Assembly (NCBI GenBank): GCA_001794025.1
Contig: MGJA01000013.1
Span: forward strand, 1 to 59,436
Direction of reading: 5' to 3'
DNA length: 59,436 bases
DNA from: Candidatus Yanofskybacteria bacterium RIFCSPHIGHO2_01_FULL_41_21
GTDB taxonomy: Bacteria > Patescibacteriota > Minisyncoccia > 2-02-FULL-40-12 > GWA2-44-9
Both the position numbers and the translations under genes were made by a program. Of this stretch, positions 7,239-59,285 are shown piece by piece. The notes beneath the pieces were generated by a model. The model did no database searches. It saw nothing but the letters and a program-made list of their open reading frames with translations, and was not told the origin of the DNA. Numbering within the stretch: position 1 is the first letter of the stretch; every line of letters starts with the position of its first letter.

Positions 7239-7849
7239 ATGGTTATTATTGGTTTATATTCGACCGTACAACGAAAACACCAACCGCAGTGGTTGGTGTT
7301 GGTGCATGAGAAAAACAGGCAGAGATACTTAACGAATGCAACAACATCAACCAGTTTTGGTTGTATTGTTACCTTCGTCAAAGACCCCTTAATCAGAAAT
7401 TTAAATTTCTGTTCGGCAACCTCCTATGACTCATAGAGCGGAATAAACGCTCAGTCGTGTATCTCTACACGCGTAAGGCAATATGTATTTTCGACGTACT
7501 ACACATACCTTAGTACATAGAGAGACAAATGCAATAGAAGTAGGTGGATAACACATTTGGTTCAACAGACTGCCAAAGGAGGCGCAAATTGAACTGTTGG
7601 TAAGCCCCCTTCGCAACCGTCCTTATTTAAGCTTGAATGGACGCCAGGTCGATATTTTGTTAGAATACCCTTAACAATTCAGCCTAAACCCATCAAGAAT
7701 CCTTGGCGGGCATGGCACAAAATCGTTAGGTACATTAAACCCGTCAGAGGGCGTACCTAACGTTATACAGGGAAACTTGTATATGCGACCGAAAGGTTGC
7801 ACCTGTGGCGGGTTTTGTGTTTCTTGCCACCTAAATCCATCCAAGGAGT

Positions 7850-13561: not shown

Positions 13562-16528
13562 ATGAACCAACTTGAACTACACAAAAAAATAGAAGAATTT
13601 ATTAAAGCAGGAACTGTGTCTGCGGATATTAAAGTTGCCCAAGAATTGATTAAAAACGAGGACGCTAAGCGGTTCTTCTTCTCCCAAACAGATGAGAGTT
13701 GGCTTAATTGGCTTTGGCAGAAAGGTTTTCTCGACGGAGTAAAAAGTAAAATGAAAGATTCTACCACATACTCAAACAGCATGGCGGAGCTTGATTATCT
13801 AACGAAAGTTGCAGGAAAAGAACCAGCCAAGGTTTCGGAAATTATTAATTCTATAAAAATTTCCGAAGTGAACTTTAATCCAGAAGTTGTTGGTCGCTTC
13901 TTATGGATTATTAGCGAACTTCCAGCAGAACAAATCAAGACACTTACAGCAAAAATTAAGGATGAGAAGTGGATTTATTTAATGCGGGGTTTTCGTAAAT
14001 CTGGTTATGAATTTGAAAAGATTATTAAGAAGCTTGTTGAGAAAAAAGAAAGTAGTGCGATTTTGGAGTTGGCCCAAAGCTTGCTTATTGTAAAAAGTAA
14101 AACAGAAATCTTGGAGAAAGAAAGTAGCTTCAGTATTGATGATCCATTCTATGTTAGTGATTTAGATGCGTCTGGTGTTTTTGAGGCTTTAGTCGACATT
14201 GCTGATTCTCACAAAGAAATGGCGCTACAGATTACAACTGGCATAATGGCAGAAATTATAAAATTGGCTGAGCCAGATGAGAGTAAGGTTTTTGATTATC
14301 GAGATCCATTTGCTCTATATGATGTTGATTTCTTTACTCTTGAAATTGAAAACAAGGGTAGTTCCTCATATAGAGAAGATGTTAAAAACCTTGCGGCAAC
14401 TATTAAACAGTTAATTAATAGAACGATTGGCAAGAAACTCAGTAATACCGATGATATAAAACGGTTATTTGGCTATACTGATAAATTACCCTCATCTCGT
14501 TCGATGTGGCGCTTGAGATTATTTGCCCTATCTCGGTGCCCGGAGATATTCAAAAAAGAGTTACGAGATGCATTTTTCAAAGTTTTTGAAGTTGGTGAAA
14601 GATATTTTGAGATTGAAGGAGGGGCCGAATATAATCAGGCACTTATACTTTGTTTTAGTTTCTTAAATCCAGAAACAGATCAGAGGGAATACGTTAAGAA
14701 AATCTTTGAATATTTTGGTGCTGTACTTGAAGATAAAGATAAGGAAGGGTGGAGAAAAAGAGATGGTCTAGAAAAGCTTAGCTTTATAAAAGAATACCTC
14801 ACTCCCGATGAGAAAGAAGAGGCCAAGAAAATATTCAATAAGTATCCAGATGAAATTAATGTTATACCTGAGCCGACAATCGGCAAAATGCATGTTGGCT
14901 CTGTTTCTCACAGATCTCCAGTAAATCTTGATGACTATACAATTGAACAAATTGCTGAAAATCTAAAATCGGAATGGACTCCAGAGAAGCTAAATGAACA
15001 ATTCAAAAACGATGATTTCTTTCAACCTAGGGGGGTTGAGGGTCTCGGCGATGCCTTAAAAGAAAATATTAAAAAGCGAACAAATGAATATCTAAAAAAT
15101 ATTAACTCATTCTTTGATAAGAATAAAGTTCATCCGCATTATGTTTATTCGCTTCTACGAGGTATTGAGGAAATGCTTCGTAATGATAAGAATTCCTTTG
15201 ATGTACCACAGATAGGACAAATTCTAAATTTATTTAACACAATTAAGACAGAAGGAATACGAGAACCATTCAAGCGGAAAGATGATAAATCGTGGCTACC
15301 TGATTGGATAACAGTCCACAAAGTATTAACGGATGTACTGCTTCTTATTCTAGAAAATAAAGAAAGAAAAGAAGAGATTCATAAGGAATACAAGGAAAGA
15401 TTCCGAGAGCTGATTTCTTACTTGTTTACTATTAAAGATAGTCCAGCGAAAGAGGATGAAAAGCCTGAATATGGCGAGCTATACGGCGTAGCGATTAATT
15501 CTGTCCGCGGGCGAGCTTATGAGGCATTCGTTGTGCTTACTGAAAATGATGGAAAAACACTTACCGATGACACCAAGGAACTTTACAAAAAGACACTTCT
15601 TGATGATTCTCTTGCAGTTCGGTTTGTTATTGGTCGTTATCTAGCATCATTCTATTTCCGCGATAAAGAATTTATAATTGGTCTACTTCCAGAAATCTTT
15701 CCAAAAGATGATCTAGTAAAAAAAGATATATATTTAGCGTCTTGGGAGGGTTATCTGTCGAATACCTTATACGATAAATTATTTGCTAAACTTAAAGTTT
15801 ACTATAGCCATGCAATCACGCTTGATCCCAAAGACTATACACAAAGAAAATATTTCAAGGGTCTTGATGAGTCTTTGGCAATTCATGTTGCACTTTCTTT
15901 TGCCCATCTCGGATTAGAGATAGTCGATCCTCTATTTGTAGAGTTTTGGAATAAGCCAAATATAAAGCGTCATCAGGAATTTATATCATTTATTGGTCGC
16001 AGTTGTTTGACGAGAGATCAGGCAGGAGATGAGTGGCTAGCAGAAAACAAAGTTAGCAAAGAAAAACTCTTTAAGTTTTGGGATTGGGCATTGGAAAATT
16101 GTCCGAAACTTGTTGAGCCGGAAGCTCTGGCAGGTTTCGGTTTTTGGGTAAATCCGAATAAAGAAGTCTTAGTCGATATAGACGTAATTGATAGAATGGC
16201 AAAAACCCTTAGAAAGTCGGACGGGAATATTGATTGGGATTATGGGCTAATGAGACGATTACCAATTTTTGCCGAAAAAAATGGAGATAAAACATTAGAG
16301 ATTATATCAAATTTCTTATTGGACTTAAAAGGTAACCTAAACCAAAACCGCCGAGCACCCTTATTTAGTATTGACGGCGAGATTAAGCAGTCACTCGAGA
16401 TTATATATAAGAATGGAGATGTAACCTTAAAAGAAAAAGTTGTTGGACTAATAAATAATCTTATCGAAAAAGGAAGTAGTATGTTTTGGGGCTTAAAAGA
16501 TGTGATAAAAGAAGACAAGATGCTATAA
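13562..16528 (+). CDS. Large all-alpha, repeat-like hypothetical protein (~990 aa)
   Basis: Uninterrupted 3 kb ORF (ORF track start 13526; ATG at 13562 follows the upstream stop). Helix-rich composition. No Walker, nuclease, TIR or SIR2 motifs seen. Confidence 0.6.
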   Translation: MNQLELHKKIEEFIKAGTVSADIKVAQELIKNEDAKRFFFSQTDESWLNWLWQKGFLDGVKSKMKDSTTYSNSMAELDYLTKVAGKEPAKVSEIINSIKISEVNFNPEVVGRFLWIISELPAEQIKTLTAKIKDEKWIYLMRGFRKSGYEFEKIIKKLVEKKESSAILELAQSLLIVKSKTEILEKESSFSIDDPFYVSDLDASGVFEALVDIADSHKEMALQITTGIMAEIIKLAEPDESKVFDYRDPFALYDVDFFTLEIENKGSSSYREDVKNLAATIKQLINRTIGKKLSNTDDIKRLFGYTDKLPSSRSMWRLRLFALSRCPEIFKKELRDAFFKVFEVGERYFEIEGGAEYNQALILCFSFLNPETDQREYVKKIFEYFGAVLEDKDKEGWRKRDGLEKLSFIKEYLTPDEKEEAKKIFNKYPDEINVIPEPTIGKMHVGSVSHRSPVNLDDYTIEQIAENLKSEWTPEKLNEQFKNDDFFQPRGVEGLGDALKENIKKRTNEYLKNINSFFDKNKVHPHYVYSLLRGIEEMLRNDKNSFDVPQIGQILNLFNTIKTEGIREPFKRKDDKSWLPDWITVHKVLTDVLLLILENKERKEEIHKEYKERFRELISYLFTIKDSPAKEDEKPEYGELYGVAINSVRGRAYEAFVVLTENDGKTLTDDTKELYKKTLLDDSLAVRFVIGRYLASFYFRDKEFIIGLLPEIFPKDDLVKKDIYLASWEGYLSNTLYDKLFAKLKVYYSHAITLDPKDYTQRKYFKGLDESLAIHVALSFAHLGLEIVDPLFVEFWNKPNIKRHQEFISFIGRSCLTRDQAGDEWLAENKVSKEKLFKFWDWALENCPKLVEPEALAGFGFWVNPNKEVLVDIDVIDRMAKTLRKSDGNIDWDYGLMRRLPIFAEKNGDKTLEIISNFLLDLKGNLNQNRRAPLFSIDGEIKQSLEIIYKNGDVTLKEKVVGLINNLIEKGSSMFWGLKDVIKEDKML

Positions 16529-32575: not shown

Positions 32576-33424
32576 TTAGAATCCGAAGAGAAGTTGGAAG
32601 AATCGGCCGATACCACCGAAGAATTTACCACGAGCTTTTTCTTCGTCATTCGGTTTTACACTTGGACTTGGTGTAGCGCCTTGGTCAATGACCGAATAGG
32701 CCGTGATGGCGGTACCGTTGATTGTTCCTTGGACGACGACATTATCGCCGACCACTACCGTTGAGATAGTAGAGAGAGCGCCTTTGTTTTGGACTTTGGC
32801 GGTTGAACCATCAACTGTGTAGGTGACATTACTCTTGTTAGTAATTGTTAAGGTTGTTCCGTTAATGGCGGTAACAGTACCGGCAATTATCGGTTGGCCG
32901 TTCCCTTGGATAAGGGGAGTTGGCTTTGTTTTTTTATCTTTATCCTCTTTTTCTTCTTTATTTACCCCATCATGAATAGTGGTGGCAAGGACATTAGTAC
33001 CCGTAATTGTACCCTGAATCTTAACTATATCGCCGACAGTAATACCGGAAACAGTTGAAGCGACGCCGGCTTTAACAACGGTTGCCTGGCTGGCATCAAC
33101 AGTGTATACGATTGGCGCGGGAGTTGCTTTTGGCGCGTCTTCGTCTTTATTATTATCGTTATCTTCATCATCTTTACCCCAGGCCCAACCCACTCTACTA
33201 TTACTGGTTACAGTAAGGGTCGTGCCATTTATGGCGGTAACCGTACCGACAATGTTTGGACGCATTACATTGACTCGGTCCATCATCATTCTGCCCCAAT
33301 TTATTAAGCCACCTTTGTCATCACGCGATTCACTTGATTGTGAATTGTTTGTTTGAGCAAGGGCCGGCACGGCTAATACCAAACTAGCCAATACTGCCAG
33401 TGAAATATATTTATTTTTTATCAT
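32576..33424 (-). CDS. Secreted DUF5666-like repeat protein
   Basis: Signal peptide; four GTVTAINGTTLTVT-type beta repeats. Confidence 0.55.
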   Translation of the reverse strand: MIKNKYISLAVLASLVLAVPALAQTNNSQSSESRDDKGGLINWGRMMMDRVNVMRPNIVGTVTAINGTTLTVTSNSRVGWAWGKDDEDNDNNKDEDAPKATPAPIVYTVDASQATVVKAGVASTVSGITVGDIVKIQGTITGTNVLATTIHDGVNKEEKEDKDKKTKPTPLIQGNGQPIIAGTVTAINGTTLTITNKSNVTYTVDGSTAKVQNKGALSTISTVVVGDNVVVQGTINGTAITAYSVIDQGATPSPSVKPNDEEKARGKFFGGIGRFFQLLFGF

Positions 33425-33534
33425 CCCGTTAGAAATTTTACTGACCGTCCACCATTTTATGATGGTGGCTATGGTTAGTAATTTTAGTTAATAATTTAAT
33501 GAGATATTCCCGCAGGGTTAATTTCTAACGGGAT
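33423..33534 (-). promoter_or_regulatory. Structured 5' leader / palindromic element enclosing the start codon (homologue of 44182-44295)
   Basis: 15-nt arms ATCCCGTTAGAAATT / AATTTCTAACGGGAT. The distal arm contains the first two bases of the AUG. Shared internal blocks with the second copy. Confidence 0.5.
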
Positions 33535-33769
33535 TACTCAATATTAATAAAAGAGCCAGTTCGACTCATACTAGCTCCATGTGACTAGATACGTAATGAC
33601 CTCTCTCCTTGTTTCAGCCCTTTTTACTGAAATAATTACAAAACATTTATTTTCTTTGACTACTTGACAGGTTTTTTACAAAAGAATACGGTGATATCAT
33701 AAATAAATCTTGTTGAAAAAATGTAGATTATTCGCCAATAATTTACAAATTCAACAGGAATCTCATACC

Positions 33770-42805: not shown

Positions 42806-43024
42806 CCCTCCACCCTAATACCCACTTAATTATTCGTAAAATTGTATCAACGTCACTTGAGGTATACTCTTATCCCCAGACCCGGGAAACCAGTCCCGTC
42901 GGTTTCCCCAAAGGGACCCCTTCCGCTACTGGGTCTAAGAGTATACCTCAAGTGACTCAGAATTAAATTTCTCCACAACCTGTCTACTGGTAGACAAGCT
43001 TCTCGCTGGGGGTTAGGGTGTCGG
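42806..43024 (+). repeat. Nested palindromic element, long form, carrying conserved asymmetric core (copy 1 of 4)
   Basis: Outer IR CCCTCCACCCTAA / TTAGGGTG; middle IR GTCACTTGAGGTATACTCTTAT / TAAGAGTATACCTCAAGTGAC; core 42874-42935. Confidence 0.85.
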
Positions 43025-44162: not shown

Positions 44163-44181
44163 TTTGATATACTAAGCATGA

Positions 44182-44295
44182 ATCCCGTTAGAAGTGAACC
44201 CTAATGGGAATAAATTATATTAACTATTAATCAAAGTGTATCTAGCTTGCCACTATCTTAATACGGTGGATGTTGTGTAGCACTTCTAACGGGAT
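44182..44295 (+). promoter_or_regulatory. Structured 5' leader / palindromic element enclosing the start codon (homologue of 33423-33534)
   Basis: Arms ATCCCGTTAGAAGTG / CACTTCTAACGGGAT; extended -10 TGATATACT at 44166-44174 just upstream; AUG at 44294. Confidence 0.5.
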
Positions 44296-45118
44296 GAATA
44301 TACCAAAATACGATACCGATGCGGAACCAATAGTGCAATTAACTGATTCACCTCATGTTGAAGCGAGTATCCCCGAAGCCGTTCCGGCGGTCCAGCGTTC
44401 GCGGACTTCAGGTTTGTCTGATCTTGATAAAACAAAGTTGATTTTACCCGTTTCAATCCTAATCGCCGCTGTTTTAATCAGTGGTTCCATTTTATACACT
44501 CGTAATGGCACAGGAAATAATGGGACTGCTTTAGTCGGCGGTAACCAAGGTCCGGTTAAAGAAGTTGATATTGATCTCAAAGACGCAATAATAATGGGGG
44601 ATGCCAAGGCGCCGGTAACAGTTGTTGAATATGCTGATTTTCAGTGTCCATTCTGTCAAAGATATTTCCAACAAAACAATTCGGCTCTTATCAGTCAGTA
44701 CGTGAATACCGGCAAAGTCAGATTTGTTTGGAAGGATTATGCATTTCTTGGTCAAGAGTCAATTTGGGCAGCCGAGGCCGCTCGTTGTGCTAATGATCAA
44801 GGTAAATTCTGGGAATATCACGATTACCTTTTCAACAACCAAGGAGCGGAGAATTCCGGCGCATTTTCAAAGGATAATCTCAAAAAATTTGCTTCAGCGC
44901 TCGGTTTGAACATGGGCCAATTTAATTCATGCTTAGACACAGATAAGTACGCATCAGTCATTCAAAAAGAAACACAGGAGGGAAATAAAATTGGCGTGAA
45001 TGGCACACCGGCAACATTTATAAATAATAAACTCGTTGCCGATAGTAATGGTAACTCTGTCGGTGCCTCTCCATTTTCCGTCTTCCAAGCCGTTATTGAA
45101 CAAGAATTGTCCAAATAA
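44294..45118 (+). CDS. DsbA-like thioredoxin-fold protein, membrane anchored
   Basis: YADFQCPFC active site; TM helix. Confidence 0.8.
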   Translation: MNIPKYDTDAEPIVQLTDSPHVEASIPEAVPAVQRSRTSGLSDLDKTKLILPVSILIAAVLISGSILYTRNGTGNNGTALVGGNQGPVKEVDIDLKDAIIMGDAKAPVTVVEYADFQCPFCQRYFQQNNSALISQYVNTGKVRFVWKDYAFLGQESIWAAEAARCANDQGKFWEYHDYLFNNQGAENSGAFSKDNLKKFASALGLNMGQFNSCLDTDKYASVIQKETQEGNKIGVNGTPATFINNKLVADSNGNSVGASPFSVFQAVIEQELSK

Positions 45119-51526: not shown

Positions 51527-52492
51527 ATGTTTGACTTAATTATCATTGGTGGTTCGGCGGCTGCTACGACGGCTGGTGTTTATGCGGCCCGTCGCGGTCT
51601 CAATCCCGCCCGACCGGATGACTCCGGTCAGTCGGGCGGGTTTAAAATAATTACCAAAGAATTTGGGGGTGAAGTGGCGACATCGGGTGAAATTGAAAAT
51701 TGGCCCGGCATTGTTCATACGGATGGCCTATCACTTGCTGAACAATTTAGGGTCCATCTAAATACTAATCATGTTACCCCAGAAGAAGGTGTGGTGGTTT
51801 CATCAATTACCAAACAGATTGATGGTAATTTTGTAATTTCTACTGAAGTTGATGGAGAAAAAAAAGAATATACATCTCGAGCCGTTATTGTTACAACCGG
51901 CGTTCATCCTAAGGAACTTGGTGTTCCCGGAGAGAAAGAGTTTAGAAACAAAGGTGTTACTTATTGTACAACTTGTGATGGGCCGTTATTTCAAGGTAAA
52001 ATCACAACTGTTGTTGGTGGGGGCAATTCCGCCCTTGAATCGGCGTTGATGCTGGCCGATATTGCTTCACAGGTCTTTGTTGTAAATAAAAACGACAAGT
52101 TTAAGGGTGAACAGATTTTGATTGATAAGCTTAATGCCAGACAAAATGTTAAGATTATTTATCAAGCCAAGACCACGGAAATAAAAGGCGATTCAGCAGG
52201 CGGACTTGTTTCTGAATTAGTGTATACTGATTCAAGTGGGGTATTACAAACTTTAAAAACTGACGGCGTATTTATTCATATCGGTATGGTTCCAAATTCT
52301 GGAATTGTACCCGAAGATATTTTGAAAGATAAATTTGGTCAAATTATTGTTGATGATCATTGTGCCACAAATATCCCGGGGTTATTTGCCGCCGGTGACG
52401 TGACTGATGTCCCATTTAAACAAATCGTAATTGCCGCCGGCCAAGGATGTATTGCTACCCTGTCCGCAGTAGAATACCTCAATAGAAAGTAA
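51527..52492 (+). CDS. trxB: Thioredoxin-disulfide reductase with 12-codon palindromic insertion
   Basis: GGSAAATTAGVYAARRG FAD motif, redox CTTCDG, GGGNSALE NADPH motif, GDV. Confidence 0.85.
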   Translation: MFDLIIIGGSAAATTAGVYAARRGLNPARPDDSGQSGGFKIITKEFGGEVATSGEIENWPGIVHTDGLSLAEQFRVHLNTNHVTPEEGVVVSSITKQIDGNFVISTEVDGEKKEYTSRAVIVTTGVHPKELGVPGEKEFRNKGVTYCTTCDGPLFQGKITTVVGGGNSALESALMLADIASQVFVVNKNDKFKGEQILIDKLNARQNVKIIYQAKTTEIKGDSAGGLVSELVYTDSSGVLQTLKTDGVFIHIGMVPNSGIVPEDILKDKFGQIIVDDHCATNIPGLFAAGDVTDVPFKQIVIAAGQGCIATLSAVEYLNRK

Positions 52493-53004: not shown

Positions 53005-53011
53005 GACAGCT

Positions 53012-53119
53012 AGAACTAACCTTTTCGCCCCAGACCCGGGGAACCATTCGCCAGCCGGCGGACCGACGGTTCCCCCGCAAGCGGGACCCCTTCCGCTACT
53101 GGGTCAAAGAGTAGGTTCT
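53012..53119 (+). repeat. Palindromic element, short form, with conserved core (copy 2 of 4)
   Basis: Core 53027-53105 CCCCAGACCC...GGGACCCCTTCCGCTACTGGGTC. Confidence 0.8.
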
Positions 53120-53129
53120 TCCTTCAAAC

Positions 53130-54863
53130 ATGAATTTAGAGGGGTTACATATTAAGGGTGATATCACGACCGCTGATGCGGATCGTGTTCGTTATTCTCA
53201 TGATGCGAGTATTTTTGAAGTTAAACCGGAAGTCATCATTTATCCCAAGGATAGTGAAGATGTAAAAAATCTCGTGAGATGGGTTGGGGAGCATAAGGCC
53301 GAACAGCCCTTCGACGATGCTCAGGGTAAACCCGAAATTTCATTGACTGCTCGTTCGGCCGGTTCAGATATGTCCGGCGGACCACTGAATGATTCTATTA
53401 TTCTTGATTTCACTAAGTATTTTAATCATGTTTTGGAAGTAGGCAATGAATATGCAGTGACGGAACCCGGTGTGTATTATCGGGATTTTGAAAAGGAAAC
53501 TTTGGCTAAGGGTTTACTCTTGCCTTCCTATCCCGCTTCTAGGGAAATATGTGCGATGGGTGGTATTGTTGCCAACAATTCTGGCGGTGAAAAATCTCTG
53601 GCATATGGAAAGACCGAGAAATATATTGAGGAATTAAATGTTGTTTTATCTGATGGTAATGAATATGTTTTCCGATCCCTGACTCCTGAAGAATTGGAAA
53701 TTAAAAAATCCCAAAATGATTTTGAAGGCCAGATTTATCGAGAGATGCATGCTCTCATCGAATCCAATTATGATGCGATTCAAAAAGCGAAACCGGATGT
53801 TTCTAAAAATTCTGCCGGTTATAATTTGTGGGATGTTTTAGTGCCTATAAATGAACTTGATCCCGTACGAAGTCGCGCTCGCGACTCTGTCGCGAGTCCA
53901 AAGGACCGTGGCGCGGCTACTTCGTACGGGATGAATCTGAATAAATTATTTGTCGGTTCGCAGGGTACCCTTGGTCTAGTCACTAAAATAAAATTTAAAC
54001 TCATTAAACCTAAAAAGTATTCAAAACTTTTGGTTATCTTTTTGAATGATCTTGCTCCTCTTGGTGATTTGGTTAATGAAGTGATGCAGTTTAAACCCGA
54101 AAGTTTTGAGACCTATGATGACCAGACACTAAAACTAGCTATTCGATTTTTGCCGGATCTTATAAAAAAAATGAAAGGCAGTGCCTTGTCTTTATTCTTT
54201 GAATTTACACCGGAAGCGATAATGATTCTGACTGGTGGTCTGCCAAAACTGGTCCTGCTCGCAGAATTTACAAGTGATGACGAATCGGAAGTTGATGAAA
54301 AATTGGCAAAGGTGCAGCAAATTGTTGAGTCAAAATTTAAAGCCAAGACCCATATTACTAAAGATTCCGAAGAAGCGGAAAAATACTGGACTATTCGCCG
54401 TGAGAGTTTTGCTTTGTTACGAAAACACGTTGGGGATAAACACACAGCACCGTTTATTGATGATGTGATCGTTCATGTTGACCAGTTGCCGACATTTCTC
54501 CCTAAACTTAACCAATTAGTCGGTGAATATCCCGGATTAACTTACACCATTGCCGGCCATGCCGGTGATGCAAATTTTCATGTTATCCCGTTGATGGATT
54601 TTCATAACGAAGCCAATCGTCAAGCTATCCCCGAATTGTCTGAAAAGGTCTATGATTTGGTTGTTTCATTGCACGGTTCAATTACCGCTGAACATAATGA
54701 CGGGCTGATTCGTACACCTTACCTTGGAAAAATGTATAGTCCGGAAATTATAGAATTATTTAAAAAAACCAAACAAATATTTGATCCGCAAAATATTTTT
54801 AATCCGCGCAAAAAAGTCGGTGGAACATTACAATACTCACTGGCACATATTTCAAAAGAATGA
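53130..54863 (+). CDS. FAD-linked oxidase (GlcD/D-lactate dehydrogenase family) with repeat-derived insertions
   Basis: FAD_binding_4-type N-terminus (ARSAGSDMSGG), C-terminal GSITAEHNDG. Confidence 0.75.
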   Translation: MNLEGLHIKGDITTADADRVRYSHDASIFEVKPEVIIYPKDSEDVKNLVRWVGEHKAEQPFDDAQGKPEISLTARSAGSDMSGGPLNDSIILDFTKYFNHVLEVGNEYAVTEPGVYYRDFEKETLAKGLLLPSYPASREICAMGGIVANNSGGEKSLAYGKTEKYIEELNVVLSDGNEYVFRSLTPEELEIKKSQNDFEGQIYREMHALIESNYDAIQKAKPDVSKNSAGYNLWDVLVPINELDPVRSRARDSVASPKDRGAATSYGMNLNKLFVGSQGTLGLVTKIKFKLIKPKKYSKLLVIFLNDLAPLGDLVNEVMQFKPESFETYDDQTLKLAIRFLPDLIKKMKGSALSLFFEFTPEAIMILTGGLPKLVLLAEFTSDDESEVDEKLAKVQQIVESKFKAKTHITKDSEEAEKYWTIRRESFALLRKHVGDKHTAPFIDDVIVHVDQLPTFLPKLNQLVGEYPGLTYTIAGHAGDANFHVIPLMDFHNEANRQAIPELSEKVYDLVVSLHGSITAEHNDGLIRTPYLGKMYSPEIIELFKKTKQIFDPQNIFNPRKKVGGTLQYSLAHISKE

Positions 54864-55525
54864 TTCAAATTTTACCCGCTATTCTGGCTGAGACACCGGA
54901 ACAATTCAAACAGATGGTGGAAAAGGTCTCTCCTTTTGCGTCTGTCCTGCATCTGGACACATCTGATGGAGTTTTTACAGATACTAAATTTATTGGCCCG
55001 GATGTCCTGGCATCTTCACCGGCAAATATTGAATGGAGTGCACATTTGATGGTTCAAAATCCTGAAAATATTATTTTGTCCTGGCTGGATCTGCCGAATG
55101 TTAAAAGGATTATTTTCCACATTGAGACCACTGACCCCGCTCTTGTCCACAAGGACGGGGTAAACAAAACTCAAGAAATCATTGATACTGTACACAATGC
55201 CGGGAAGGAGATAGGGATTGCGTTAAATCCAGAGACCAACATAGAAGCGGTGGAACCATTCATGGAGCAGGTTGATTTTGTCCAATTTATGTCAGTCCAT
55301 CCCGGTCAGTATGGTGCAGAGTTTCTGCCTGATGTTCTGAATAAGGTCAGTGATTTTCATATTAAACACCCAAATGTTAAAATAGCGATTGACGGAGGAG
55401 TTAATCCTGAACGGATACCGGCAATGCAAAAAGCGGGCGTTTCAATTTTTATCTCCGGAGGATATATTATGAATAGCGATAATCCTGAAAAAGCAATCGC
55501 AGAACTGAAGGATAGATTTCGTTAA
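54860..55525 (+). CDS. rpe: Ribulose-phosphate 3-epimerase-like protein
   Basis: HLDTSDG, MSVHPGQYG, IAIDGGV. Confidence 0.65.
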   Translation: MIQILPAILAETPEQFKQMVEKVSPFASVLHLDTSDGVFTDTKFIGPDVLASSPANIEWSAHLMVQNPENIILSWLDLPNVKRIIFHIETTDPALVHKDGVNKTQEIIDTVHNAGKEIGIALNPETNIEAVEPFMEQVDFVQFMSVHPGQYGAEFLPDVLNKVSDFHIKHPNVKIAIDGGVNPERIPAMQKAGVSIFISGGYIMNSDNPEKAIAELKDRFR

Positions 55526-55526
55526 G

Positions 55527-55619
55527 AATTAGTCCTTTGCCCCAGACCCATGAAACCAGTCCCGTCGGTTTCCCCAGCTTCGCTGGGACCCCTTCCGCTA
55601 CTGGGTCCAAGGACTAATT
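55527..55619 (+). repeat. Palindromic element, short form, with conserved core (copy 3 of 4)
   Basis: Outer IR AATTAGTCCTTTG / CCAAGGACTAATT; core 55540-55606. Confidence 0.85.
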
Positions 55620-55633
55620 TTTAACTACAACAT

Positions 55634-56662
55634 ATGCGTTATGACGTAATCACAATTGGTTCGGCATCACGAGATGTCTTTTTGAGTTCGCCAGATTTTA
55701 AAATAATCAATGGCGGGGAAACAATGGGGCAGATATTAGGGTTGCCTTTGGGTTCAAAAATTGAAGCGAAGAAAATTGTTTTTGCCACCGGAGGGGGTGG
55801 AACCAATACTGCTGTTACTTTTGCTCGTCAAGGATTTAAAACTGCTTGTATCAGTATTGTCGGGAATGATTTAAACGCCACGGCAATCCTGGAGGAATTG
55901 GCCAGCGAGAGTGTGGATACCAGCTTCTTTCAAAAACATATTGATGATATGACTGCATACTCTGTTATCTTGGTGCAAGACGGTGGAGAACGTGTAATTT
56001 TGTCATACAAGGGCGAAGGTCAACATTTTGAATCTTCACAGATTTCATTTGAACAACTTGAGGTTCACCCCGCCTCTGAAACAGGCGGGGCAAGTTGGCT
56101 TATGCTTGGAAGTTTAGGCGGACATTATGACCTTATAGAAAAAACATTAAATTGGGCGACTGATAAAGGTATTAAGATTGCAACCAATCCCGGTTCCAAA
56201 GAATTAGAATTAGGATTAGAAAAATTAAAACCGTTGCTTAAGCGATGTGCAGTAGTATCAATGAATCAAGAAGAAGCGGCGGGGTTGTTAGGACTAGAAT
56301 CTGATAAAGAAGAAGAAATATTTAAAGCTATGGATGAAATTGTAAACGGGATTTTTATTATGACCAAAGGCCATGATGGTGTGGCGGTGTCTGACGGTAA
56401 ATCAGTGTACCGCGCGGGCGTACCGGATTCGCCGATTGTGGAACGAACAGGAGCAGGGGATGCGTTTATATCCGGTTTCGTGGCTGAATATTCCCGTTCA
56501 GGCGATATTGTGAAATCAATTCAATTGGCGACCGCCAATTCTTCGTCAGTGGTAACTCAATATGGAGCCAAGGCCGGTATTTTAGAAAAAGGGAATACGG
56601 GTCTGTGGCCGTTAGTAGAAGTAACAATAAGTAATAAGCAAAAAGTAATAAGCAAAAAGTAA
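55634..56662 (+). CDS. PfkB-family carbohydrate kinase with 7-codon palindromic insertion
   Basis: GGGGTN and TGAGDAF motifs. Confidence 0.8.
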   Translation: MRYDVITIGSASRDVFLSSPDFKIINGGETMGQILGLPLGSKIEAKKIVFATGGGGTNTAVTFARQGFKTACISIVGNDLNATAILEELASESVDTSFFQKHIDDMTAYSVILVQDGGERVILSYKGEGQHFESSQISFEQLEVHPASETGGASWLMLGSLGGHYDLIEKTLNWATDKGIKIATNPGSKELELGLEKLKPLLKRCAVVSMNQEEAAGLLGLESDKEEEIFKAMDEIVNGIFIMTKGHDGVAVSDGKSVYRAGVPDSPIVERTGAGDAFISGFVAEYSRSGDIVKSIQLATANSSSVVTQYGAKAGILEKGNTGLWPLVEVTISNKQKVISKK

Positions 56663-58162: not shown

Positions 58163-59077
58163 ATGACATTAAACGACTATTTAAAAAAAGCTCGAGAAGG
58201 AAGATATGCTATCGGACATTTTAATTTTGCGACGGAAGATGTTTTGAAGGCGATTGTGGCGGGAGCGAAAGAGGCCGGCGCGACGTGTGTTATGGTCGGG
58301 ACGTCGGAGGGCGAAGCGGAGTTCGTTGGTCTTAAAGAAGCGGTGGCGTTGGTTCGAGCGGTGGCTGATGATATGCAGTTTCCTGTATTTTTGAATGCCG
58401 ACCATTTTAAATCATTTGAGAAATGCAAAGAAGCAATTGATGCCGGATATGATTCTATAATTGCCGACCCCGTCAGAAGCCGCTCCGTTTCGGCTGTCTC
58501 AGGACAGCCTGCTTCTAACGGGGCAAGTGGTCTTGGTTTTCAAGAGAGAGTAGATATTACACGACAAGTTGTTGAATATGCCCGTTCTGTGAATCCGGCC
58601 ATTTCTGTGGAAGGGGAGCTTGGATATTTGAAGGGCTCGTCAGAAGTTCAGACAAAAATTGAAATTAGTTCGGCAGATTATTCAAAACCTGAAGAGGTGG
58701 CTGATTTTATTACCAAAACGGGAGTAGACCGAATGGCTGTGGTTTTTGGTAATATCCATGGCATTGTCACTGATCAAGAAGAAAAACTGGATATTGAACA
58801 TTTTTTAAAAATAATAGCGACCGCGCCACAACCCTATTATGTTTTACACGGTGCGTCAGGATTAAAAGATGAAGACATTAAATTAGTTATTCAAGCCGGT
58901 ATTACAAATATCCATTTCAATACAGAACTTCGGGTAGCTTATCACGATAAACTGAAAGAGGAATTTACCGACCCATCTACTTCGTCTGAGACCACTCCCT
59001 ACAAATACCTCGCTCCCGCCGCCGAAGAAGTCAAAAAATTAGTGATGGCAAAAACTCGCTTGTTTATAGGTCGTTAA
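58163..59077 (+). CDS. fba: Class II fructose-bisphosphate aldolase with 18-codon palindromic insertion
   Basis: YAIGHFNF, NADH, GELG, FGNIHG, VLHGASG. Confidence 0.85.
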   Translation: MTLNDYLKKAREGRYAIGHFNFATEDVLKAIVAGAKEAGATCVMVGTSEGEAEFVGLKEAVALVRAVADDMQFPVFLNADHFKSFEKCKEAIDAGYDSIIADPVRSRSVSAVSGQPASNGASGLGFQERVDITRQVVEYARSVNPAISVEGELGYLKGSSEVQTKIEISSADYSKPEEVADFITKTGVDRMAVVFGNIHGIVTDQEEKLDIEHFLKIIATAPQPYYVLHGASGLKDEDIKLVIQAGITNIHFNTELRVAYHDKLKEEFTDPSTSSETTPYKYLAPAAEEVKKLVMAKTRLFIGR

Positions 59078-59080
59078 TAT

Positions 59081-59285
59081 CCCTCCACCCCAACCCCCGA
59101 CTTAATTATCCGTAAAATTGTACTAGCGTCACTTGGAGTACACTCTTATCCCCAGACCCAGGGAACCAGTCCCGTCGGTTCCCCTAAAGGGACCCCCTCC
59201 ACTACTGGGTCTAAGAGCATACCCCAAGTGACTTAGAGTGAAATTACTCTGCGACTTCTCGCTTAGGGTTAGGGTGTTAGTCGCT
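59081..59285 (+). repeat. Nested palindromic element, long form, with conserved core (copy 4 of 4)
   Basis: Collinear with 42806-43024 including flanks; core 59150-59211. Confidence 0.85.

Follow-up and report, generated by a model that had tools for sequence, protein, structure and literature searches.

What is a 69-nucleotide palindrome doing inside an otherwise intact gene for a flavin adenine dinucleotide (FAD)-linked oxidase, and is it read as protein? The question is raised by a stretch of 59,436 nucleotides, referred to here as the window, from Candidatus Yanofskybacteria bacterium RIFCSPHIGHO2_01_FULL_41_21, a member of the Patescibacteria from groundwater (assembly GCA_001794025.1, contig MGJA01000013.1), in which a preliminary description made from the letters alone had noticed an in-frame palindromic insertion in the oxidase gene and had assigned it to the same family as a palindrome in an aldolase gene. 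With a probability of about 0.75, we consider the 69 nt to be a copy of a small, non-autonomous mobile element of the miniature inverted-repeat transposable element (MITE) kind, which landed in frame, is likely translated and is probably nearly neutral for its host. Coordinates of the element, of its parts and of the related copies are collected in Table 1.

The element consists of the segments CCCGTACGAAGT CGCG CTCGCGA CTCTG TCGCGAG TCC AAA GGAC CGTGGCGCGGCT ACTTCGTACGGG, the first and last of which are reverse-complementary at all 12 of their 12 positions. It starts on a codon boundary of the oxidase gene ((53862-53130)/3 = 244) and its 69 nt amount to 23 codons, so that the open reading frame (ORF) at 53130-54863 on the forward strand runs through uninterrupted. 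Together with the A-T that adjoins it at either end, the element spans 73 nt, which are predicted to form a three-way junction, in which two small hairpins branch from a long closing stem, with an energy of -44.2 kcal/mol as against -25.4 +/- 3.2 for shuffled sequences (z = -5.85; none of 200 shuffles matched it), and an equally good fold is predicted for the opposite strand. The GC content is about 64% within the element and roughly 40% in the surrounding region. The terminal 12-mer has no other occurrence without mismatch in the window. A 12-bp repeat alone would be weak proof of anything, because about 0.7 bare inverted repeats of this length within 200 nt are expected by chance in 59 kb according to our own arithmetic. 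With the matching termini, the read-through of the gene and the fold energy together, the insertion is nevertheless what the preliminary description had said it to be, palindromic, in frame from a codon boundary and 23 codons long.

That the insert is genuine DNA is shown by a contig from an independent assembly (run X7), which covers positions 53555-54312 with zero differences, and by contigs from groundwater and soil metagenomes (X1, X2 and X4), which contain the element at 6-14x depth. The latter contigs end inside the element, where the depth rises 5-10 fold and contigs coming from the two sides overlap; both the breaks and the rise would be expected of a repeat with further copies elsewhere in the community. 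The same breaks and depth could also be read as the signature of a repeat misplaced during assembly, but the X7 contig spans the site, the contigs overlap within the element, the ORF stays open and the orthologue from two other assemblies (L001/L002) has the same insert, which leaves an artefact with a negligible probability.

The host protein has LctD, glycolate oxidase and the D-lactate and D-2-hydroxyglutarate dehydrogenases as its closest solved relatives, and its source-named homologues are from Parcubacteria, Paceibacterota and other Patescibacteria. As had been proposed at the outset, we aligned its orthologues and mapped the insert onto a structural model. The loop that lies between residues W234 and K272 has a length of 13-15 residues in about 100 of 120 orthologues (typically WNVWDRKTFDLTK), and a PVR...S(N/Y)G segment occurs within it only in the window protein (P0001) and in P0024, P0053, P0081 and P0082, the other 115 being without it. 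It is also absent from the syntenic relatives L003-L006, which have the same gene order and 88-90% amino acid identity; in these, F-D is joined directly to L and the protein passes across the empty site from ...ATATTTGAT to TTGAATAAA (in a longer stretch, ...GGAATATTTGAT TTGAATAAA...). The net gain relative to these nearest orthologues is 24 residues rather than 23, because eight upstream residues differ too (LVPINELD in the window, YDKTTGIF in the relatives). In the AlphaFold model, the predicted local distance difference test score averages 83.6 and drops below 50 at residues 244-263, with confident structure on both sides, which fits a flexible loop. Other orthologues have further short extra segments at the same place (CPPAQAGNG.., CSPAEASAKAGD.., ARRSLGEGG..), and the loop seems to be generally prone to taking up small inserts. 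A second in-frame, GC-rich segment found only in the window protein, PFDDAQGK at residues 60-67 (53307-53330), is missing in all 31 other aligned orthologues. Relative to L006, the host gene is a mosaic with 59-100% nucleotide identity per 25-codon window, which suggests frequent recombination among relatives.

The termini of the element link it to a large family. Four copies with ends of the form CCCGTnnGAA / TTCnnACGGG lie in the window, one in the FAD oxidase gene, one in the class-II aldolase gene and two at start codons; the shared ends extend to CCCGTnnGAAG / CTTCnnACGGG, which confirms the kinship with the aldolase insert, itself found to read as originally given. In general form, the family has the ends (Y)CCCGT(TA/AC)GAA ... 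TTC(TA/GT)ACGGG(R), which close a hairpin or a three-way junction of 50-110 nt. Scans restricted to one genome per species were made with CCCGTTAGAA-N30-60-TTCTAACGGG (canonical, TTAG-type) and with CCCGTACGAA / TTCGTACGGG (TACG-type, the termini of the FAD copy). They yielded at least 118 loci for the canonical termini, where we calculate some 0.03 by chance, and at least 119 further loci for the TACG type, mostly in Patescibacteria among the matches listed; the copies of both types together number more than 240. Canonical copies are found in many classes of Patescibacteria, in Omnitrophota, in Planctomycetota (Pirellulales, Phycisphaerae), in Desulfobacterota and other metagenome-assembled genomes labelled as Deltaproteobacteria, in WOR-3, KSB1 and Thermodesulfovibrionia, and in one gammaproteobacterial metagenome-assembled genome; judged by its termini, the family is present in at least seven bacterial phyla. 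At least 8 loci lie in a single Nomurabacteria genome (MFVS01). In the TACG list, a few GC-rich hairpins of actinobacterial origin may be terminators or chance matches. The interiors are unrelated between subfamilies, which have only their termini in common, and the idea that TACG termini arose in place by compensatory changes (TA to AC in one arm, TA to GT in the other) was ruled out since TACG copies form a large separate subfamily. Five viral contigs from IMG/VR (L249-L253) also have canonical elements, so that viruses are a possible vehicle between hosts. No copy was matched by an Rfam family, either at the gathering score in the window as a whole or at E<=0.5 in positions 33000-59436, and our literature search returned no relevant paper on these termini, on MITEs in the candidate phyla radiation or on in-frame palindromes in Patescibacteria; the family is apparently undescribed.

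This breadth bears on whether the 23 residues could be an ordinary, lineage-specific expansion of a loop, never mobile and palindromic by accident or secondarily. The loop does vary in length, and other orthologues have unrelated extra segments in it (CPPAQAGNG.. and ARRSLGEGG..), but perfectly paired 12-nt termini shared with over 240 loci of other genes and other phyla, a nearly identical peptide and DNA in the UvrB gene of another genome (L245), relatives at 88-90% identity that have no insert and a fold at z = -5.85 make this explanation hardly credible.

Insertion of the family duplicates its target over 5 or 6 bp, as seen from one clean pair of filled and empty sites and from the statistics of the flanks. 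The pair is provided by the DsbA-like gene, at which the window reads ...AAGC ATGAAT, then the 110 nt of the element, then ATGAAT ATACCAAAATACGAT, and the empty relatives L003-L005 read ...ATCT ATGGAT AAATCAAAATACGAT. The flanks of 120 canonical copies are direct repeats in the 6-nt register only, with 3.94 of 6 positions identical compared to 2.47 +/- 0.10 for shuffled partners; identity is 69-82% at positions 2-5, and 52% and 43% at the outer two. The duplicated consensus is RTNNAY (e.g. ATGAAT, ATTGAT, GTTTAC), and the two bases that adjoin the element, one on either side, are complementary in nearly every copy. At gene starts, the left flank nearly always ends in T (ATGAAT 41, ATGGAT 22, ATGAGT 9) and the right flank often in A (ATGAAA 23). 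A length of 50-110 nt, too short for a transposase gene, terminal inverted repeats of 10 or more nt in more than 240 copies, a duplicated target (degraded at the FAD copy) and dispersed copies (four within the 59-kb window) are all features of MITEs, and the element has every such feature that was conclusively tested.

Copies inside genes pass a strict filter on length and frame. Among 121 canonical copies used for frame counts, 28 lie within long ORFs, and 27 of these 28 have a length that is a multiple of three, whereas outside ORFs the three length classes modulo 3 number 37, 31 and 25. Within ORFs, 25 copies read CCC GTT AGA ... AAC GGG (PVR..SNG), three read CCG TTA GAA ... ACG GGx (PLE..LTG) and none uses the third frame, in which the canonical termini read CGT TAG and so contain a stop. 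That the first of the two open frames is favoured 25:3 over the second is probably due to the character of the peptide, which is hydrophilic and bounded by Pro and Gly. The three-way-junction subfamily, to which the FAD copy belongs, is GC-rich and 69 nt long in most copies, and its frame 0 is free of stops in 18 of 24 copies read forward and in 22 of 24 read in reverse; it is found within ORFs in both orientations, in sense in the window, L001, L161, L170 and L245, and in antisense in L200, L058, L075 and L078. Hosts of in-frame copies confirmed by Pfam include UvrB, FtsX, GyrB, ATP synthase gamma, DnaE, SecA, RsmH/MraW and GatB. For instance, the copy in the UvrB gene of L245 encodes PVRSRARDFVASPKDRSAATSYG, almost the peptide of the FAD oxidase. 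These counts lend support to the earlier suggestion that the common frame reflects selection for a tolerated translation. If the FAD insert is translated, the peptides DSVASPK and GAATSYGMNLNK would be expected. Elements in the second canonical frame (PLEV..LLTG) lie between duplicated G-F-T codons of a prepilin-like gene at L101 4877-4939 and L124 3652-3714, and many of the GTTTAC-flanked copies of Planctomycetota and Omnitrophota may lie in prepilin-like genes.

The same filter argues against the alternative that the element is present in the message but not in the protein, the ribosome bypassing it or the RNA being removed, with the flanking repeats as take-off and landing sites. Bypass elements such as those of T4 gene 60 and the yeast mitochondrial byp elements are compact hairpins in coding sequence, have matching flank codons and derive from mobile GC-rich palindromes. 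The present elements resemble this model as compact hairpins with flanking direct repeats of one to two codons, and the copies at gene starts are often of non-3n length and contain stops although the genes persist. Intragenic copies here are, unlike bypass elements, under a filter for 3n length and absence of stops in the host frame (27 of the 28 canonical copies in ORFs), which would be needless if they were skipped and which points to ordinary translation; the stop-containing copies at gene starts are accounted for by the regenerated downstream start codon. As for the FAD copy itself, no stop follows the left repeat and the flanks mismatch (CTTGAT versus ATGAAT). A programmed bypass element, which would have matching take-off and landing codons and a stop right behind the take-off codon, was rejected for this site, where GAT stands opposite AAT and no in-frame stop is present, and skipping or removal of the insert is in our judgement very unlikely.

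A further possibility is that the host has selected the element as a cis-acting structure of its mRNA, for translational pausing between domains or for stability, the peptide being incidental. Across 24 three-way-junction copies from different genes and genomes, 8 of the 23 predicted pairs have compensatory changes and both inner loops vary freely. Between the window and L001, whose proteins are 71% identical, differences in the element are mainly confined to the two loops and one other position; the nucleotide identity is 88% in the element (87% at third positions) as against 66% in the rest of the gene (41.5% at third positions), with 77% (55% at third positions) in the 20 codons on each side. 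This difference points either to constraint on the DNA of the element or to two copies that are far younger than the genes in which they lie. Stems kept while loops drift, third positions this well conserved and a location between the two Pfam domains are what an mRNA structure would show. However, members of the three-way-junction subfamily lie in genes that are unrelated to one another, some in sense and some in antisense to the ORF, the nearest orthologues are without it and the target duplications indicate insertion. Moreover, G.U pairs on the sense strand at stem positions 11-16 do not exceed A.C mismatches (11 versus 13 in ORFs, 59 versus 85 at gene starts), so that no sign of selection at the level of the host mRNA is apparent. 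The comparison of copies shows that the fold is a property of the element, and we regard a structure selected by the host as unlikely.

The history of the FAD site itself seems to be one of repeated occupation. In L125 (orthologue P0081), the site reads TTTGAT, 60 nt, ATTGAT TTG, which is the expected duplication; L127 has the same flanks as the window (CTTGAT ... ATGAAT), and L125 and L127 have mutually homologous interiors, which differ from those of the window and L001. L129 (3712-3810, orthologue P0082) has at this site an element nested in another element, 99 nt in all, with the termini CCCGAACGAA / TTCGTACGGG. The insert-bearing alleles have in common the upstream motif W[DN]VL[VTS][PS] and are 61-71% similar to the window, compared to 88-90% for the empty relatives. 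We infer that the loop is a tolerated landing place which has been hit, hit again and overwritten, and that a patch made of loop and element has spread between lineages by recombination; a single ancient insertion followed by many losses is less parsimonious.

Many copies lie not within genes but exactly at their starts. In the TACG set, 71 of 122 copies are located directly 5' of a start codon (counting ORFs of 60 codons or more) and are flanked left and right by ATGNAT, so that the first two codons are duplicated, and the two AT-rich copies of the window (44178-44299 and 33422-33538 with their flanks) are placed likewise. With 112 start-codon copies turned to the direction of their gene, 87 pairs have similar interiors in the same sense and 1 pair in the opposite sense. 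On the sense strand, T runs of at least 5 occur in 1 copy and A runs in 41, and the simplest explanation of the orientation would be selection against a hairpin followed by a U run, that is, a terminator before the gene. The upstream duplicate of the start codon is kept in 92 of the 112 copies and opens an ORF of 6-30 codons ending in or just past the element; the A and U of the real AUG are paired in the closing stem, and translation of the short ORF might open the stem around the real AUG. A mobile promoter was ruled out: the two start-codon copies of the window contain no sigma-70-like site, and -10-like boxes are equally frequent in sense and antisense over the 112 copies. Taken jointly, these features could be read as more than a passive MITE, namely as a mobile hairpin recognised by its structure, with machinery of its own and spread over at least seven phyla, which homes to RTNNAY and above all to the first two codons of genes. 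In such a system, the AUG held in a stem of 14-16 bp behind the short upstream ORF opened by the duplicated start codon would act as a translational gate, and some intragenic copies might be skipped by the ribosome. We consider this fuller scheme rather unlikely.

Returning to the in-frame MITE-like copy as the preferred explanation, the course of events at the FAD gene is probably as follows. A GC-rich copy, of 3n length and free of stops, landed in the Phe-Asp codons (TTTGAT in the empty relatives) of a variable interdomain loop, in a phase in which its termini read Pro-Val-Arg-Ser ... Thr-Ser-Tyr-Gly and the gene stays open. The insert would most likely be translated as a flexible loop of some 23 residues and kept as nearly neutral baggage; the element would presumably be moved by a transposase, and in distant orthologues the site would have been hit or overwritten repeatedly rather than inherited once. 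Mobility with target duplication, the repeated occupation of the FAD site by different members and the many copies at start codons lie beyond what the preliminary description had envisaged.

Several observations weigh against this explanation. The FAD copy is without a clean duplication, CTTGAT and ATGAAT agreeing at 3 of 6 positions. Insert-bearing alleles from different clades of the gene have a distinctive upstream flank in common, which requires recombination, convergence or ancient polymorphism. Termini conserved across phyla around unrelated interiors are unusual for ordinary MITEs, and the fixed orientation at gene starts (87:1) would not be expected of a simple transposon whose ends are symmetric. 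The retrieved loci, about 2 Mb in all, were found to contain neither an autonomous element nor a transposase with the family termini between paired ends 0.4-6 kb apart. Finally, the FAD locus is in none of three tiny metatranscriptomes. End pairs about 1.7 kb apart, considered as an autonomous partner, enclose ordinary genes and were ruled out, and no unpaired ends with matching flanks were found in the retrieved loci.

The closest analogue among known systems is that of the Rickettsia palindromic elements (RPEs), palindromic repeats of about 150 bp which lie in frame in unrelated, often essential genes and whose peptide is tolerated (PMC10969869). Here too, palindromes lie in frame in genes such as those for FAD oxidase, aldolase, GyrB, SecA, DnaE, UvrB and GatB. 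RPEs are confined to Rickettsia, whereas the present family spans several phyla, has sharp termini of 10-12 nt, a length of 50-110 nt and a duplication of 5-6 bp, and has many of its copies at start codons and not inside genes. The likeness is one of behaviour, and membership is not claimed because the host is a Patescibacteria genome. Correia/NEMIS and ERIC elements are small, with inverted repeats, target duplication, many copies, no transposase, occasional in-frame copies and a preference for sites upstream of genes (PMC10969869). Our family resembles them in size, inverted termini, duplication, copy number, lack of a transposase gene, intragenic in-frame copies and sites upstream of genes, but differs in having interiors that are unrelated between subfamilies, termini that are conserved across phyla, no promoter signal and an exact placement at the start codon.

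Repetitive extragenic palindromes (REPs) are extragenic and 20-40 nt long, with a GTAG or CGTC tag at one end and no target duplication. REPs and bacterial interspersed mosaic elements (BIMEs) are short structured palindromes recognised by REP-associated tyrosine transposases (RAYTs) through the hairpin and a short conserved tag, and have a wide taxonomic range (PMC3733652). Short structured palindromes and a wide taxonomic spread are found here as well; membership was ruled out by the intragenic copies, the length of 50-110 nt, the symmetric CCCGT.. termini and the duplication. Among bacterial insertion sequences, the IS1380 family, a relative of piggyBac, produces duplications of 4-5 bp. The ends of piggyBac begin with CCCTAGAAAG beside a TTAA duplication (PMC5861402). 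The corresponding pattern here, TNNA-(Y)CCCGTTAGAAAG, is a lead, the likeness covering only some ten bases; compared with piggyBac and IS1380, the target is looser (RTNNAY), and no copy was found to have a transposase of this kind close by. In their sequence, the flanks TTGAT and TTAC are reminiscent of the targets of ISDra2 and IS608. Palindromic elements derived from IS200/IS605 have neither terminal inverted repeats nor a target duplication and insert 3' of a single fixed tetra- or pentanucleotide; a reading as such an element was ruled out by the inverted termini, the duplicated targets and a flanking pentamer that varies within one subfamily. A reading as an integron attC site was likewise ruled out: such a site has RYYYAAC 5' and GTTRRRY 3' of the hairpin, and here the order is reversed on both strands (GTTAGAA 5', TTCTAAC 3').

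Selfish DNA read in frame within proteins, best known from Rickettsia, would with this family extend to the candidate phyla radiation and other uncultivated phyla, and to core genes such as those for gyrase, SecA, DNA polymerase III, UvrB and GatB, which it does not break. Segments of 17-26 residues of the PVR...SNG kind in proteins from these lineages are to be taken as insertions and not as homologous protein, and their recognition removes noise from alignments; the elements may also serve as markers by which gene flow and recombination can be followed in streamlined genomes.

Table 1. Coordinates of the element in the FAD-linked oxidase gene, its parts, its host gene and the other family copies of the window.
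Feature	Position	Strand	Remarks
69-nt element, TACG-type, three-way-junction subfamily	53862-53930	+	in-frame reading PVRSRARDSVASPKDRGAATSYG
Left terminal inverted repeat, CCCGTACGAAGT	53862-53873	+	outer stem runs on to 53878
Right terminal inverted repeat, ACTTCGTACGGG	53919-53930	+	partner side of outer stem starts at 53911
Inner hairpin 1, CTCGCGA-CTCTG-TCGCGAG	53878-53896	+	stem covaries, loop free across 24 copies
Inner hairpin 2, GTCC-AAA-GGAC	53896-53906	+	stem covaries (GTCC/GGAC, GTCT/AGAC, GCCC/GGGC), loop free
Left flank hexamer, CTTGAT (Leu-Asp)	53856-53861	+	putative degraded copy of the target duplication; empty site in relatives TTTGAT/TTG
Right flank hexamer, ATGAAT (Met-Asn)	53931-53936	+	commonest left-flank hexamer of start-codon copies (41/112)
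Host gene, FAD-linked oxidase of D-lactate / D-2-hydroxyacid dehydrogenase type	53130-54863	+	intact; insert between FAD_binding_4 and FAD-oxidase_C domains
Copy in class-II aldolase gene	58469-58522	+	54 nt, CCCGTCAGAAGC..GCTTCTAACGGG, reads PVRSRSVSAVSGQPASNG; also in relatives L003 and L005
Copy at DsbA-like gene	44184-44293	+	110 nt, AT-rich, directly 5' of ATG; ATGAAT at 44178-44183 and 44294-44299; empty in L003-L005
Copy at DUF5666 gene	33425-33532	-	108 nt, AT-rich, directly 5' of ATG (33424-33422) of gene 32576-33424

The window contains other repeats and small inserts. A second repeat family has four copies (42852-42956, 53010-53112, 55521-55625 and 59128-59232), each just 3' of a gene, with a GC-rich core of about 62 nt (CCCCAGACCC..GGGACCCCTTCCGCTACTGGGTC) and a long outer stem that varies but stays paired (12 of 32 pairs compensatory); it has no Rfam match, and in orthologue P0016 it is translated as an N-terminal extension. 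The thioredoxin reductase ORF (51527-52492) has a GC-rich palindrome of 36 nt at 51606-51641 (CCCGCCCGAC..GTCGGGCGGG), which adds 12 residues in frame (residues 27-38; loop NPARPDDSGQSGG), is missing in the 91%-identical L004 and has termini unlike those of the PVR family. A short in-frame GC-rich palindrome, CCCCGCCTCTGAAACAGGCGGGG (HPASETGGAS), lies at 56066-56088 in the PfkB kinase ORF (55634-56662). The ribulose-phosphate 3-epimerase gene (54860-55525), which has a 10-residue segment found only in the window, is 56% identical to its L004 orthologue compared to 88-98% for its neighbours and may represent a gene replacement. The L004 aldolase (14735-15670) has 7 extra residues (around SPERYDIMIYH) that are not in the window. 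ARAGORN found no tRNA genes in the window. Matches to Rfam at the gathering score are a group I intron at 1869-2056 on the reverse strand (60.2 bits), beside a tRNA-like GC-rich stretch at 1816-1861, and a LOOT RNA at 7681-7801 on the forward strand (77.2 bits).

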